Under the pieces are notes generated by a model. It saw only the letters and a program-made list of their open reading frames with translations, ran no database searches and had not been told where the DNA came from. From positions 1 through 39,260 of the forward strand of contig JASFYY010000107.1 of NCBI GenBank assembly GCA_045046875.1: a stretch of 39,260 bases of DNA, in the 5' to 3' direction. The position numbers and the translations under genes are program-made. Origin of the DNA: Verrucomicrobiota bacterium (GTDB lineage: Bacteria > Verrucomicrobiota > Verrucomicrobiia > Verrucomicrobiales > DEV007). Shown piece after piece: positions 3,569 to 36,804 of the stretch. Each line of letters starts with the position of its first letter. Positions within the stretch are counted from its first letter, which is position 1.

Positions 3569-3854
3569 GGGCGTAAACAGAATAGTTAAGCTGCTGACAG
3601 CCATGCGTTCCGTCCTTGCAGGACTGGAAGAATTGGATTTTTTACCCAGTGCGAAGCGCTGGGCTGTCTCATTGAGCACCGTTGGTGCAATAGAGATGAA
3701 AGCAAACTGTCCTGTAAGGACAAAATGTGATAGCCCAGTGCGAAGCGCTGGAGTTAGATCGGTTTTATTGCCAGCCCTAAAAGGGCGAAATGATATTGAT
3801 GGGTGATAAGCTAGCTTTCAATAAATAATGGCTAACTTTTTTATCCTGCACCTC
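3569..3854. mobile_element. MITE-like repeat, copy 1 (diverged, inverted relative to 30919-31210)
   Basis: Aligns end to end with the reverse complement of 30919-31210. Right end taacttttttatcctgcacct matches the copy-2 TIR at 19/21; left end is degenerate. Internal hairpins cccagtgcgaagcgctggg, tgtcct-gta-aggaca, gccct-aaa-agggc. Confidence 0.8.
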
Positions 3855-15683: not shown

Positions 15684-16433
15684 GTGTTACCACTTCACAC
15701 CGCCAACCTACCCAAACAGGACGACCGCCGATCGGCGAAACGCCGTCCTGCCGTCGCGTTGCTGGTTTCTGTGACCCTACATTTGCTGATCGCACTCGCC
15801 TTGCTGCTGATCCCCCGACCGGATCCACCTTTGAAAAATGCCCCGACCACGCCTCAGTTCACCCTGCATTTTTCTAGTGATCAAGATCTACTGGCGACTT
15901 CCCCAGCAGCTCCTCCCCAAAACAATACTCAAACCCCCTCCCAAATTCTTCCACCCCGCCAGCACGCAGCGCCCGCCCCTCTTAGTCCTAGCATTTTTCC
16001 TGCGCTACCAGCGCTCACCATTTCCGCTACCTTCGCCACCAATGAAAACGTCGCGACTACAATAGAACTCACCTCGACCAGTATTGATTTCCCCCGGCCA
16101 AAAGCACAACCATCCACCCTCCCCCAACACAAAAGCTCCGCTTCATCCGCCACCACCGGCAAACTCGCTGCCGCCCGCCCCTCAAAAAGGCGCGCACCGA
16201 TCTACCCTAAAATCGCCCGCAAAAAAGGCTACCAAGGAACCTCAGTCTTCATCGCCACCATCAACCCCGACGGCAGCATCAAAGAGCTAAAGTTATCAAA
16301 AACCTCCGGCCACGCCATTCTGGACCGTGCCGCCAAAGAAGCCCTGCGCCACTGGAAGTTCACCCCCGCCAAACGCAACGGCATCACCATTGCCTCCCAA
16401 CTGCGCATCCCGATCATCTTCCGCTTGGGGTGA
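15684..16433 (+). CDS. tonB: Energy transducer TonB
   Basis: 249 aa. TM helix with SVTLH (SxxxH) motif, Pro-rich linker, C-terminal YP..AR..G.QG...SG...LD.AA...WKF.PA domain. Confidence 0.9.
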   Translation: MLPLHTANLPKQDDRRSAKRRPAVALLVSVTLHLLIALALLLIPRPDPPLKNAPTTPQFTLHFSSDQDLLATSPAAPPQNNTQTPSQILPPRQHAAPAPLSPSIFPALPALTISATFATNENVATTIELTSTSIDFPRPKAQPSTLPQHKSSASSATTGKLAAARPSKRRAPIYPKIARKKGYQGTSVFIATINPDGSIKELKLSKTSGHAILDRAAKEALRHWKFTPAKRNGITIASQLRIPIIFRLG

Positions 16434-16466
16434 ACACAGGACATGCAACTGACCTCACAAGGATTC
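16405..16466 (+). repeat. 62-bp direct repeat, copy 1 (tonB 3' end, spacer, phyH first 8 codons)
   Basis: gcatcccgatcatcttccgcttggggtgaacacaggacatgcaactgacctcacaaggattc; 61/62 identical to 17079-17140. Confidence 0.97.
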
Positions 16467-16476
16467 TTAAAAACCA

Positions 16477-16791
16477 CTAGCTTGCCAATCCAAGCCACAA
16501 CTTGAGAGCTTGCTCCACCTTCTGCAAAGTATCGTCATCAACCTTGCTGATCCGCCGCATATATTTTGCGTTTGAAATACTGCCTATAAGCTGCACAGCA
16601 AAAGCCCCCTCCCTCATTCCCCTTGCACGGTGAACCACATCAAAACGCCCTTGATCCCATACACTTGTGGTACGCGGAATGTATGTCACAATCGCCCGTT
16701 CATCATCGGTGTAGTTGACACTGAGCACCAGAACAGGACGCACCTTTCCGGTATAACCAAGGTCTGCCAGCCAGATTTCGCCACGCGTCAT
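16477..16791 (-). CDS. Type II toxin, PemK/MazF family endoribonuclease
   Basis: 104 aa. RGEIWLADL...GKVRPVLVLS N-terminus, IP.TT, Q..SIS...L..V..AL...LGL C-terminus. Confidence 0.9.
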   Translation of the reverse strand: MTRGEIWLADLGYTGKVRPVLVLSVNYTDDERAIVTYIPRTTSVWDQGRFDVVHRARGMREGAFAVQLIGSISNAKYMRRISKVDDDTLQKVEQALKLWLGLAS

Positions 16792-16967
16792 TACTCAATC
16801 AGTTGACTGTTTCCACCATCCTCATCATCCAGCATTTGGGCAACCATTGCCGACGAGGCACTCGCATCTTGCTCCAGCTCATAACGTTCAAGCCATTGCC
16901 TGAATTGACCGTAATCCTTTTGCGGCAAGCGCTCAATAGCTTGTTCGATTTCTAAAACGGTAGTCAT
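16791..16967 (-). CDS. Putative antitoxin, 58 aa (absent from the ORF track)
   Basis: MTTVLEIEQAIERLPQKDYGQFRQWLERYELEQDASASSAMVAQMLDDEDGGNSQLIE; small, acidic, TAATG stop/start overlap with the toxin. Confidence 0.8.
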   Translation of the reverse strand: MTTVLEIEQAIERLPQKDYGQFRQWLERYELEQDASASSAMVAQMLDDEDGGNSQLIE

Positions 16968-17078
16968 AGTCGCAGGATAACTTACCTATCTCGGTTTTGC
17001 GAGTTTATATTTTCTCCCATCACAAGCAAGCGAAGCCCCTATTCACTTGTATTTCTGCACTATAAACCTCAACATTAT

Positions 17079-17140
17079 GCATCCCGATCATCTTCCGCTT
17101 GGGGTGAACACAGGACATGCAACTAACCTCACAAGGATTC
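17079..17140 (+). repeat. 62-bp direct repeat, copy 2
   Basis: Same as 16405-16466 except one synonymous change (CTG/CTA Leu); contains the functional phyH start codon. Confidence 0.97.
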
Positions 17141-17779
17141 GAAATTCATCGCAGGGTTTTACCTGAAGCCGAGCTGAAAAAGTTTCGCATCATTTGCGAT
17201 CAACTGATCAAAGATGCCGGCACCACTTGTGTCCGCCATATCGATCATCTCTCTGATCCCATAAAAAACCTCTCCACCAACCCTTGTTTGCTCAACTTGA
17301 TCCCAGCCCACCTCTCCCTCGTCAGAAGCATCCTCTTCGACAAAACTATTTCAAAAAACTGGCCAGTCGCCTGGCATCAGGATTTAACCATCGCTCTCAA
17401 ACACAAAATCGAATTGCCCGCTTACGCCCCTTGGTCAGTCAAAGATGGCGTGCCTCACGTTCAACCGCCGACAGAGCTGCTGCAATCCATGACCACCATC
17501 CGCATCCACCTCGATGACACCCCGGCGGAAAATGGAGCCCTGCGAGTGATCCCAGCCAGTCATCAGCTCGGCAAAATCCCCAGCAAAGATATCCCAATCC
17601 ACAGCGCCCGATCCATCCACATCTGTGAATGCCAAGCTGGCGACATCCTCACCATGTCCCCACTGATCCTGCACTCCTCCCCACGCTCCACCCACCCCTC
17701 CCGAAGAAGAGTGATCCATTTCGAATACGCCCCCCTCAAAAAACTGGATAGTCGCCTGCAGTGGCATAGCTCTCCATGA
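17117..17779 (+). CDS. Phytanoyl-CoA dioxygenase (PhyH) family Fe(II)/2-oxoglutarate oxygenase
   Basis: 220 aa. WHQD (HxD), IHLDD...NGAL.VIP.SH, distal His LHSS, RRVIH. Confidence 0.88.
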   Translation: MQLTSQGFEIHRRVLPEAELKKFRIICDQLIKDAGTTCVRHIDHLSDPIKNLSTNPCLLNLIPAHLSLVRSILFDKTISKNWPVAWHQDLTIALKHKIELPAYAPWSVKDGVPHVQPPTELLQSMTTIRIHLDDTPAENGALRVIPASHQLGKIPSKDIPIHSARSIHICECQAGDILTMSPLILHSSPRSTHPSRRRVIHFEYAPLKKLDSRLQWHSSP

Positions 17780-17944: not shown

Positions 17945-18232
17945 ATGCCAGATCAAAATATAAATTCACCTCCCGAATTGGAAGTTTTCGCAAAGTCCCA
18001 AGTGGCTTCAGGCTACTTCAATAATGCAAGTGAGGTGCATCGAGCCGCCCTTTCTGCTTTGGCGCGTGCCGAGGAAGAACGAGAACTACGCTTGCAAGTG
18101 TTGCGTAGGGAAATCAAATTAGGGCAAGCTGATATGGATGCAGGTCGCTACTCGACCATTGCTTCACCAGAGGAATCTAGTGATTATTTTTCCAAGCTTC
18201 GCGAAAAAGCCATAAAACGCGTAGAAAAATAA
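17945..18232 (+). CDS. parD: ParD-family (ribbon-helix-helix) antitoxin
   Basis: 95 aa. NI..PPELE.F...QVASG.FNNASEV.R.AL and L..LR.EI..G.AD..AGR patterns; precedes a ParE remnant. Confidence 0.8.
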   Translation: MPDQNINSPPELEVFAKSQVASGYFNNASEVHRAALSALARAEEERELRLQVLRREIKLGQADMDAGRYSTIASPEESSDYFSKLREKAIKRVEK

Positions 18233-18234
18233 CG

Positions 18235-18578
18235 ATGCTCAATTATCGCATCTCTGATCACGCAGAAGAAGACATCGTTTCGCTGAGCGCATACACCTTG
18301 AGAATTTCGGGGGCAAACTTTGGATCGTTACCTGATGCTGATTGAAGTTGCGCTGTTGGAGCTTTGCAAAAACCCGTCACGACGCGGGGTTACAAAATTT
18401 GAAGATAAGATCATGAAATTTCATCTGCGCCACTGCCGAGCTGATGCAGCTAAAAAAAGGTGAATTCATTAACAAACCTCGCCACATGATTTTCTTCAAA
18501 GAAGCCGAGGATGGAACTCTGGAAATTCTCCGACTGCTCCATGACAGCATGGATGTAGCCAAACAGTTGAGTCCATGA
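18235..18578 (+). pseudogene. parE: Frameshifted ParE/RelE-family toxin
   Basis: Segments MLNYRISDHAEEDIVSLSAYT / ENFG / QTLDRYLMLIEVALLELCKNP...FHLRHCR / KPRHMIFF...LEILRLLHDSMDV cannot be joined in one frame; about three 1-nt indels needed (near 18296, G run near 18310, A7 run near 18455). Confidence 0.85.
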
Positions 18579-18633
18579 AACATCTCTGCATGTAAACCCG
18601 TATTCATTTACCTCTAACCATCTCTCTCCTCTT

Positions 18634-18703
18634 ATCCGCGTATATTTGCCTTCGAGTAATAATCTCCGGCTGTCTCATTGCACTCGGCTGCGCCATCCAC
18701 GGT
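18634..18703 (+). repeat. ~70-bp dispersed element, copy A
   Basis: atccgcgtatatttgccttcgagtaataatctccggctgtctcattgcactcggctgcgccatccacggt; aligns with 19938-20008 (reverse) and 20103-20172. Confidence 0.85.
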
Positions 18704-18786
18704 AAAAAAATCATAAGTAAGATGCCGACCCCACGGCCAGGTGGCCGATCCCAATGCCTAACACCTACAGTCTAAACCGCTACAGC

Positions 18787-20008: not shown

Positions 20009-20102
20009 GAAATATTTAGTTTTAATGATTCTTTTTTAAATCGTAAAAATCAGACTGCCGTGGTTATCGTCTGTTGTCCTATTTAACTCAATCCCCTTTC
20101 TT

Positions 20103-20172
20103 ATCCGCGCTCATTTGCCTTCGGGTTCTTTCCTCCGGCTGTCTCCTTTCAGGAGGCTGCAAAATCCGCGGT
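20103..20172 (+). repeat. ~70-bp dispersed element, copy C (inverted pair with B)
   Basis: atccgcgctcatttgccttcgggttctttcctccggctgtctcctttcaggaggctgcaaaatccgcggt. Confidence 0.85.
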
Positions 20173-20180
20173 CAAGATTC

Positions 20181-30918: not shown

Positions 30919-31210
30919 GGGGTGCAGGACAAAAAAGTTAGCCATTGTTTATTGAAAGCCACCTTATCACCCATCAACATCATTCCGCCCTTTTAGGGCT
31001 GGTAATATAACCGATTTAACCCCGGCGCTTCGCACCGGACTATCACATTTTGTCCTTTCAGGACAGTTTGCTTTCATTTCTTTTGCACCAACGGTGTTCA
31101 ATGATATAGCCCAGTGCGAAGCGCCTGGTAAAAAATCCAATTCTCCCAGCCCTGCAAAGGCAGGCGAAATACATAGAGGTCAGCAGCTTAACTTTTTTGT
31201 CCTGCACCCT
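30919..31210. mobile_element. MITE-like element, copy 2, with perfect 21-bp TIRs and candidate 8-bp target duplication
   Basis: gggtgcaggacaaaaaagtta (30920-30940) and taacttttttgtcctgcaccc (31189-31209); flanks cctcactc (30911-30918) and cctcacac (31211-31218); no transposase. Confidence 0.9.
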
Positions 31211-35614: not shown

Positions 35615-36706
35615 CTACAAATCCAACTGATAGCGCGTACTGCGTCCGCCTCCAATCGAAACCAATACCCCCAATTCCACCAGCTCTATCAAATCACGGG
35701 TAGCCGTGGCTTTGGAAATTTTAGTGATGGCCAGATATTTGCGAGCATTCATCCCTCCCTTGAAACCGTCCGCCCCCTCTTTGAGCATCCGTCGCACGAC
35801 CTTCAATTGCCTGTCATTCAAGTTATCTTGATGACGATCAAAGAATTTTGTTTTACACAACACAAATTCGACCTGCTCTTCTGCAGCCACTTGTGCCCGG
35901 CTCACCAGATGAACAAAATATCTCACCCAATCAGTTACCCTATTGGATTTCTGTGCCGTCTCCAACGCCTCATAATAGTCATTCCTATTGGCCTCTATTG
36001 TCCGGGACAAACTCAGCAAAACAGGACGCCCCAAACCCTGCGACAAGGCTTTCTCCGCTATCGCCCGACCGACTCTCCCATTCCCATCTTCAAAAGGGTG
36101 AATGCTTTCAAAATACAAATGAGCAAGAGCCGCCCGAACCGGAGCCTGCTTGATCTCACTCGCACTGTCATTAAACCACTTCAAAAACGAATCCATTTCC
36201 TTCGCCACCTGACACGCAGGAGGAGCTTCAAAATGAACCTTGCTCCGACCTGCTCGCCCTGAAACCACCTGCATAGGATCACCCAATTCACGCCACTGCC
36301 CCACCAGCACCCCCGTAGATCCTTTCATGATCATGCTGTGCCAATAAAATAGCGACTCCTTGCTTAATTTCTCCTGCCAACTTCCCCTCACATCCATCAT
36401 CAGCTCTGCTATCCCCCGTGCCGCCAAATCCCTAACCGGCTCCACAGGCACGTTCAAACCCAACTGATTCCGTAAGGATGAAACCACATCAGAACGGCTC
36501 AGATACTCTCCTTCAATTTGCGAAGTTTTGATAGCTTCGGCTAGCATCACGTCTATCACCGCATCCTGACAAATCGATTCAGGCAACCCCTTCAACATTC
36601 CATTCACCTGCCCTGCTTTGTCAGCAAAAAGCATCAATGCTTCCTGCAAACCACCCAGTTCAAAAGAGAATACCGGCCAATCCGCTTGCTGCCAATTATA
36701 TAACAT
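35615..36706 (-). CDS. Fic family protein (DUF4172-type N-terminus, C-terminal wHTH)
   Basis: YNWQQ.DWP.F N-terminus, inhibitory motif TSQIEG, intact HPFEDGNGRVGR, C-terminal SKATATRDL...GGGRSTRY. Start set at ATG 36706. Confidence 0.92.
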   Translation of the reverse strand: MLYNWQQADWPVFSFELGGLQEALMLFADKAGQVNGMLKGLPESICQDAVIDVMLAEAIKTSQIEGEYLSRSDVVSSLRNQLGLNVPVEPVRDLAARGIAELMMDVRGSWQEKLSKESLFYWHSMIMKGSTGVLVGQWRELGDPMQVVSGRAGRSKVHFEAPPACQVAKEMDSFLKWFNDSASEIKQAPVRAALAHLYFESIHPFEDGNGRVGRAIAEKALSQGLGRPVLLSLSRTIEANRNDYYEALETAQKSNRVTDWVRYFVHLVSRAQVAAEEQVEFVLCKTKFFDRHQDNLNDRQLKVVRRMLKEGADGFKGGMNARKYLAITKISKATATRDLIELVELGVLVSIGGGRSTRYQLDL

Positions 36707-36779
36707 GAGCCGATTATACCCCCTAATCGGCTCATAATAAAGCATTTTTTGAGCCGATTAAGCCCTCTATTCGGCTCAT
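36705..36779. promoter_or_regulatory. Double palindrome at the fic start, putative autoregulatory operator
   Basis: atgagccgatta-N7-taatcggctcat (36705-36735) and tgagccgatta-N7-tattcggctca (36750-36778); 44-bp period. Confidence 0.75.
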
Positions 36780-36804
36780 AGGTCGTGGAATTGGTATCTT
36801 TCCG

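Follow-up and report, generated by a model that had tools for sequence, protein, structure and literature searches.

The segment between tonB and phyH in the 39,260-nt stretch of DNA analysed here (the window) is a real, strain-variable insertion without an integrase, and it leaves both host genes intact. It carries a toxin-antitoxin gene pair between 62-nt direct repeats, the same site is found empty in relatives, and members of the same gene family lie between repeats of unrelated sequence in other genomes.

Structure of the insertion

The locus is composed of the following features (coordinates of the window):

15684..16433, plus strand: tonB, intact host gene, the last 29 nt of which open the left repeat (PF03544, E 1e-21; TIGR01352)
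16405..16466, plus strand: left repeat, with the tonB end, the 9-nt spacer and an orphan phyH start; derived G at repeat position 47
16467..16476, minus strand: 10 nt past the toxin stop, T-rich, after a weak terminator-like hairpin (16497-16478)
16477..16791, minus strand: MazF/PemK endoribonuclease toxin, 104 aa, intact (PF02452)
16791..16967, minus strand: antitoxin candidate, 58 aa, with an acidic tail, family unnamed; its stop overlaps the toxin start
16968..17078, minus strand: upstream region of 111 nt, with a putative leaderless promoter and about 75 nt of passenger DNA, GC 0.40
17079..17140, plus strand: right repeat, with an orphan tonB end and the working phyH start; equals the empty allele at the mismatch
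17117..17779, plus strand: phyH-family dioxygenase, intact host-side gene (PF05721, E 1e-14), adjoining tonB directly in the congener G005

The two direct repeats (16405-16466 and 17079-17140) are 62 nt long, start 674 nt apart and are identical at 61 of the 62 positions, the single mismatch being between the leucine codons CTG and CTA. Each copy consists of the final 29 nt of tonB with its stop codon, the spacer of 9 nt and eight phyH codons, and the orphan phyH start in the left copy opens a dead-end ORF of 20 codons. When the 5.59-Mb genome was searched, the 62-mer was present solely at these two places. The flank-similarity score at the cassette was 119, compared with a 99th percentile of 30 for 1500 random spans of the focal genome. 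The insert (16467-17078, 612 bp) holds two ORFs, those of the antitoxin candidate and the toxin, both on the minus strand, and has a GC content of 0.47 (tonB 0.57, phyH 0.53). This geometry, with tonB and phyH both intact, is exactly the one first given in the preliminary description. The evidence for the terminator-like hairpin is weak, two being found and 0.8 expected in shuffles.

The cassette had also been described as lacking an integrase, a transposase and terminal inverted repeats, and this held for the ORFs scanned and for the ends of the insert. No integrase or transposase Pfam match was found among the 29 ORFs scanned of the 32 in the window with at least 90 aa, and the insert has no terminal inverted repeat, its ends matching at 5 of 20 positions. 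No tRNA is present within the window, no outward promoter for phyH was found inside the insert by a strict scan, and no near-identical further copies of the cassette, which is single-copy, occur in the focal genome.

Assembly check and alleles in public runs

The assembly was checked against contigs from four of the ten listed public runs (X1, X2, X3 and X7); runs X4-X6, with small word shares, and X8-X10 lay outside the check. Record 26 of X7, a run that may be the source sample itself, spans positions 16361-17118, including the left flank, the entire left repeat and the insert, with one difference in 758 nt. Record 12 of X2 spans 16681-17155, including insert sequence and the entire right repeat, with ten differences in 475 nt; it reaches 15 nt of phyH past the right repeat, which is below the 31-nt bridging rule. 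The insert is present in X1 and X3 too, i.e. in all four runs compared.

An assembly artefact, a chimeric join across the short repeat, could be suspected because the focal genome is a 163-contig assembly (94.7% complete) and none of the pieces listed from the four runs is a single contig over the entire structure. However, both junctions are crossed by contigs of different studies and the insert recurs in every run compared, and the suspicion can practically be dismissed, as had already been argued from the single mismatch.

The carrier contigs differ from the focal sequence at 1 of 758, 2 of 466, 6 of 627 and 10 of 475 positions. Such divergence, up to about 2%, fits one old event, and judged from these differences the insert looks old. 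Record 19 of X3 is an empty allele, which skips exactly 674 nt and has nine differences in 277 nt. Because this empty allele is about 3% diverged and the insert contig of the same run 0.4%, the former comes from a different strain rather than from a recent excision. Depth in X2 is 17.8 and 26 for the flank contigs and 5.5 for the insert, which makes the insert the minority allele as far as depth, a rough guide only, can tell. No joint going back across the cassette was present among the listed contigs, which drop rare variants.

Empty sites in relatives

Empty tonB-phyH sites, for which the preliminary description had proposed a search in relatives, were found in the congener G005 and in the approximately 97%-identical strain of X3. 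The tonB-phyH region was searched against 41 genomes, and in G005 tonB was joined to phyH through one junction copy, the 62-mer of which is identical to the focal repeat at 47 of 61 positions. G005 has an A at the mismatch position, and the empty allele of X3 agrees with both copies over the first 46 nt and with the right copy from there on. As both share the base of the right copy (X3 by a reading of the joint table), the G of the left copy is derived.

Two other congeners also carry tonB, which is followed by pfkB in G001 and by unrelated DNA in G002, phyH being absent there in both. Since the DNA after tonB differs between them, the space behind tonB is a slot with variable content. No integrase-bearing island follows tonB in any of the three tonB-carrying congeners (G001, G002 and G005). 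A parD-parE pair lies after phyH in the window (17945-18600); parE is frameshifted here, with tblastn pieces in three frames, and intact in G005, and run contigs carry one-base insertions at 18295 and 18312. The pair is absent in G001, and thus the tonB-pfkB gap collects accessory genes.

The toxin and its partner

The toxin matches PF02452 with 46.7 bits (cut-off 23.1, E 4e-12) and has weak PDB matches to MazF7, MazF9 and EndoA. Its residues R18 and T41, the catalytic role of which we presume from E. coli MazF, are invariant in 21 of 21 aligned homologues. The 58-aa partner has no Pfam or meaningful NCBIfam match, and so no recognised antitoxin or DNA-binding domain. Its Atlas neighbours are unnamed, and the nearest named cluster, PF09720 at 0.78, is a lead only. 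Among 400 other genomes of the order, 21 encode homologues of the partner, in most cases immediately before the toxin gene.

The predicted complex of the partner with a toxin dimer scored 0.87, while the best control scored 0.13, and the predicted interface includes R18 and T41. At least 94% of contacts are shared between the prediction runs, and the pLDDT of the partner is at least 87. Of 157 solved pairs, 116 reached the mark for such scores, as did 2 of 215 mismatched ones; these figures are only a rough guide here, and the score may owe something to resemblance to solved MazEF complexes. As modelled, the gene pair is very probably a type II toxin-antitoxin system.

The motif TATCCT is located 6 nt before the antitoxin ATG. 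Of 24 family loci, 19 have TAnnnT at a distance of 5-7 nt ahead of the start, and none of the 24 has it at a control offset; a strict sigma-70 scan gave no promoter at the cassette. The placement of the motif points to a leaderless operon, in which case the whole unit would need only about 0.55 kb. As the insert includes the putative promoter, it looks derived from DNA and not from copied mRNA.

The same gene family at other loci

The same pair was sought at other loci, as the preliminary description had suggested, and flanking repeats of 39, 129 and about 144 bp, unrelated in sequence, were recorded in three genomes. The flank test used 400-bp flanks of 37 close-family loci, of which two with identical flanks were counted once, leaving 35 besides the focal one; all but one of the distant toxins (24-56% identity; 26 genome and 43 metagenome loci) lay outside it. 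Long repeats hugged the pair at 3 of these 35 loci and at 3 of 1500 random spans (p 5e-5). This p-value is overstated, as related genomes are not independent samples, the glyQS site accounts for four of the loci, and random DNA, not accessory genes, served as the control. No flanking repeat was present at the remaining 32 loci.

In G145, the repeat (39/39 bp) comprises the last codons of the upstream gene and 5 nt, is unique in that genome and encloses an insert of 546 bp; no empty allele for this site was found in three congeners. In G366, the end of glyQS is repeated (122/129 bp), with a second, older 93-bp copy further on. The repeat in G004, about 144 bp of the acrB end, has an internal deletion in one copy, and three of the four differences between the copies are non-synonymous. 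The gene pair in G004 is broken, with the toxin cut to about 26 codons and the antitoxin without its ATG. The four family repeats, the focal one included, share no sequence beyond that found in shuffles, and the four inserts share no ends. The closest outside copy of the cassette (G002, 79%) has unrelated flanks and no repeat.

The pair lies directly behind glyQS in four genomes. In G366, stacked orphan 3' ends of glyQS separate successive cargo, the toxin-antitoxin pair being followed by a PEP-CTERM-like gene (L147:157-243, 1032-1160 and 1758-1887; L146:62-156; also L140 and L143). The glyQS locus is a good place for working out the mechanism.

At 5 of the 27 printed loci (L113, L115, L117, L133 and L134) the pair follows what we take to be the C-terminus or a remnant of a tyrosine recombinase gene, and such loci could be the mobile reservoir of the family. 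Distant MazF homologues of other phyla were also observed between direct repeats of 26-205 bp (L057, L058, L060, L066, L092, L094, L049 and L052).

Similar duplications in the focal genome

Self-comparison of the focal genome gave 158 close same-strand pairs, 31 two-copy and 23 that did not lie within two genes. In eight hand-picked cases, the focal one not counted, extra DNA is enclosed by copies of a gene end or of the sequence immediately following it. Among the enclosed genes are a glycoside hydrolase, an enolase with a kinase, sulfatase-related genes and a DUF3800 gene, and such non-toxic cargo suggests that the process is general and not special to toxins. No clear empty allele was found in five congeners for the four duplications tested, of which three have their cargo shared by G005, and for this reason the other duplications of the genome remain candidates.

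In 12 hand-picked other gene-end duplications, the similarity ends at most 1 nt from a stop codon in six. Of the coding differences within these 12 pairs, 59/103 are synonymous, compared with a null of 0.37-0.46 (p 2e-5 to 0.014). The adh pair alone has 10/10 synonymous differences, and without it the excess weakens to 49/93 (p 0.001-0.12). The synonymous excess suggests that some copy pairs are two separately evolved alleles. Relatives match the working copy at 47 of the 65 differing sites and the orphan copy at 10; 23 of these 47 sites are third positions (p 0.019), the G004 pair being left out.

Among other candidate repeat-bracketed toxin-antitoxin modules of the focal genome, one on contig C87 has 140-bp flanking repeats (91%), and on C54 (L027, G000:C54:37442-38712) a DUF5615 toxin with an upstream partner lies between 236-bp units that are 72% identical. 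The C54 units begin with a near-perfect 33-bp sequence that we take to be dif-like. A repeat-bracketed toxin-antitoxin unit on C37 was rejected for its multi-copy repeat (61 matches), and a pair on C120 as paralogous genes.

Several further structures were observed. A lone Fic gene (444 aa) without an integrase inside lies between 48/49-identical repeats resembling part of a tRNA (L017, G000:C117:8362-10015). An 8.4-kb region with ORFs that are filamentous-phage-like by eye has a 27-bp direct repeat at its bounds (L029, G000:C30:42507-50938). A perfect 59-bp gene-end duplication surrounds a non-coding, palindrome-rich insert of 225 bp (L156, G000:C153:17152-17494). The window itself includes a MITE-like 237-nt pair, 88% alike (3616-3852 and 30921-31157), and a REP-like palindrome (18630-18706 and 20099-20175) with dozens of genomic copies. 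A Fic/DUF4172 gene in the window (35618-36745) ends beside two 31-nt palindromic repeats 44 nt apart (36706-36780).

Routes of insertion

The leading route is the integration of a small circle by one crossover, one of the possibilities raised in the preliminary description, to which we assign a probability of about one half; the wider class, comprising this route and the repair of a break, is well supported. A fragment would have been joined by an illegitimate joint to a 62-bp tonB-phyH piece of a near-identical donor chromosome, and the joined fragment would have closed into a small circle. One homologous crossover within the 62 bp would then have integrated the circle, leaving the piece on both sides, and the cassette would since have been inherited as a strain-variable passenger. 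Because the tonB stop and the phyH start both fall within the duplicated piece, neither gene is lost and such events pass selection. There is laboratory precedent in E. coli, where according to PMC3240628 such duplications were found in 56 of 60 recombinants (109-950 bp in 14 sequenced) and were explained by one crossover of a molecule that had been trimmed and closed into a circle again. The arrangement at glyQS, with the pair right behind the gene in four genomes, is the donor state that a circle needs. ComEC and DprA are present in the focal genome, a weak indication as most control genomes have both. The stop-codon ends and the synonymous excess favour the circle at some loci, most clearly adh. 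On the other side, the donor arrangement, with the pair beside one side only of the tonB-phyH junction, was absent from the genomes searched. Furthermore, the focal repeat continues for 33 nt beyond the tonB stop and into phyH, so that a donor would have had to carry either a disrupted phyH or a remnant of tonB.

Break repair within the recipient is possible, if somewhat unlikely: at the tonB-phyH junction, a staggered break, or a fork that had stalled, would have captured or copied 612 nt of foreign DNA, and rejoining 62 nt behind its start would duplicate the cell's own sequence in one step, with neither a homologous donor nor any special donor arrangement. It accommodates the near identity of the two copies (61/62), and since the empty alleles match the right copy, the G of the left copy can be a later mutation of dead sequence. 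The 39/39 pair of G145 and the neutral-looking differences of G004 also agree with it, and Furuta et al. proposed that double-strand breaks are the common cause (PMC2853133). Break repair leaves unexplained, however, why the similarity ends at the stop codon in 6 of the 12 other pairs and why all ten adh differences are synonymous, and no microhomology is evident by eye at either insert joint. The one difference of the focal repeat cannot tell the two routes apart, and the siding of relatives with the working copy is equally predicted by plain decay.

The preliminary description had further suggested a self-maintaining addiction cassette, which would excise through its repeats as a 674-bp circle, be held by post-segregational killing and re-integrate at the same junction in relatives. 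Excision would be clean, 62 bp exceeding the RecA threshold of about 30 bp quoted for E. coli in the text of PMC2884548; the toxin is intact, with R18 and T41 covered by the predicted antitoxin interface, and filled and empty alleles coexist in X3. Yet the sole empty allele seen in the runs belongs to the other, approximately 3% diverged strain, the insert has the lower depth in X2 (a rough measure), the pair in G004 is broken, and cargo without toxins shows the same footprint in the focal genome; the listed contigs, from which rare variants are dropped, include no joint going back across the cassette. Active excision with addiction is thus possible but distinctly improbable and unsupported, the indirect signs being against active cycling.

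Movement by a tyrosine recombinase encoded elsewhere, or descent from an integrase island leaving an att scar, the residue of the preliminary description, would be in line with the eight PF00589 matches on other contigs of the genome and with the five of 27 printed loci at which the pair follows an apparent recombinase end, assumed from a motif. The focal contig has no integrase, however, the three tonB-carrying congeners have no island after tonB, and the junction is poorly conserved, phyH being absent there in G001 and G002 and the 62-mer matching at 47/61 in G005. The repeats also differ in length and sequence at every locus, the four of the family sharing no sequence, and this reading is very improbable and largely refuted. 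The earlier statement that target duplications of DDE transposases are only a few to about 14 bp has exceptions in the IS1549/IS1634 elements, which according to PMC2266710 make variable direct repeats of 8-514 bp, and the cassette could accordingly be a non-autonomous passenger of such a transposase acting in trans. Terminal inverted repeats and shared ends among the four inserts are lacking, which makes this highly improbable. The cassette is also single-copy, and PF14104, which we take to be a marker of the IS1634 type, had no matches in the 94.7%-complete genome.

Significance

To our knowledge, the spread of standalone chromosomal toxin-antitoxin pairs without transposases or integrases is poorly explained. 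At base level, the footprints of the focal locus and its three relatives point to insertion with long target duplication. It was proposed in the 2010 survey that the class depends on the DNA breakage common to restriction systems (PMC2853133). An RNase as cargo suggests that DNA cutting by the cargo itself is not needed, and together with the metabolic cargo, if those cases hold up, it implies that host recombination is enough.

It is improbable, though slightly less so than active excision of the focal cassette, that the leaderless family as a whole is a minimal mobile element without an enzyme of its own, a circle with a captured gene end as homology key and kept by addiction. If this is true, no smaller case would be available for testing the 'virus-like cycle' that the Kobayashi group put forward for restriction-modification units, whose release and re-infection steps are said in the main text of PMC2853133 to lack experimental evidence. 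On present evidence the cassette serves as a neat and testable example rather than as a new mobile element. As the unit is only 674 bp and both alleles exist in nature, excision, circle formation and addiction are directly testable.

Comparison with known systems

Nobusato et al. reportedly described insertion with long target duplication for restriction-modification genes in 2000. The preliminary description had overlooked that the footprint is that of a published class, surveyed for restriction-modification genes by Furuta, Abe and Kobayashi (2010, PMC2853133). The survey, in its main text, defines the class by a duplication longer than 30 bp, here 62 bp (61/62); by an insert shorter than 20 kb without a mobility gene, here 612 bp with two ORFs; by a repeat that is unique and not a tRNA, as here; and by a one-copy empty site in a relative, here G005 and record 19 of X3. 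The cargo departs from its rule of restriction and modification genes, being MazF and an antitoxin. As in that class, the repeat is of variable length and spans a start or stop so that the host genes survive; in contrast to it, the cargo is an RNase toxin-antitoxin pair that does not cut DNA, and the insert of 612 bp is very small. Orphan methylases were also reported there, while the word 'toxin' does not occur in the main text of PMC2853133. A review of restriction-modification and toxin-antitoxin systems names, in its text, this route for restriction-modification units only (PMC3874152), and no report of the class with toxin-antitoxin cargo was found in the main texts of the open-access literature.

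Single-crossover and homology-facilitated illegitimate recombination resemble the case in giving variable target duplications with host enzymes only (texts of PMC3240628, PMC5361080 and PMC2884548), and the single-crossover route accounts for orphan gene ends that lie in stacks, as at glyQS. The precedent differs in being an engineered plasmid in E. coli, and classical homology-facilitated events give deletions. The IS1549/IS1634 elements share the long, variable direct repeats (text of PMC2266710) but carry a transposase and inverted ends, neither of which the cassette has. Integrative islands differ in having a linked integrase, a tRNA or a conserved att target, none of which was found at this locus. 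The gene pair resembles mazEF/pemIK in its PemK-family toxin, the small acidic partner upstream, the overlapping stop and start, and the predicted binding of the partner across the active-site face of the toxin dimer; it differs in that the 58-aa partner matches no MazE or DNA-binding family and the operon appears leaderless. The cassette has the footprint of a known class and carries cargo of a new kind; it is filed as a variant that works like the class and not as one of its restriction-modification members.
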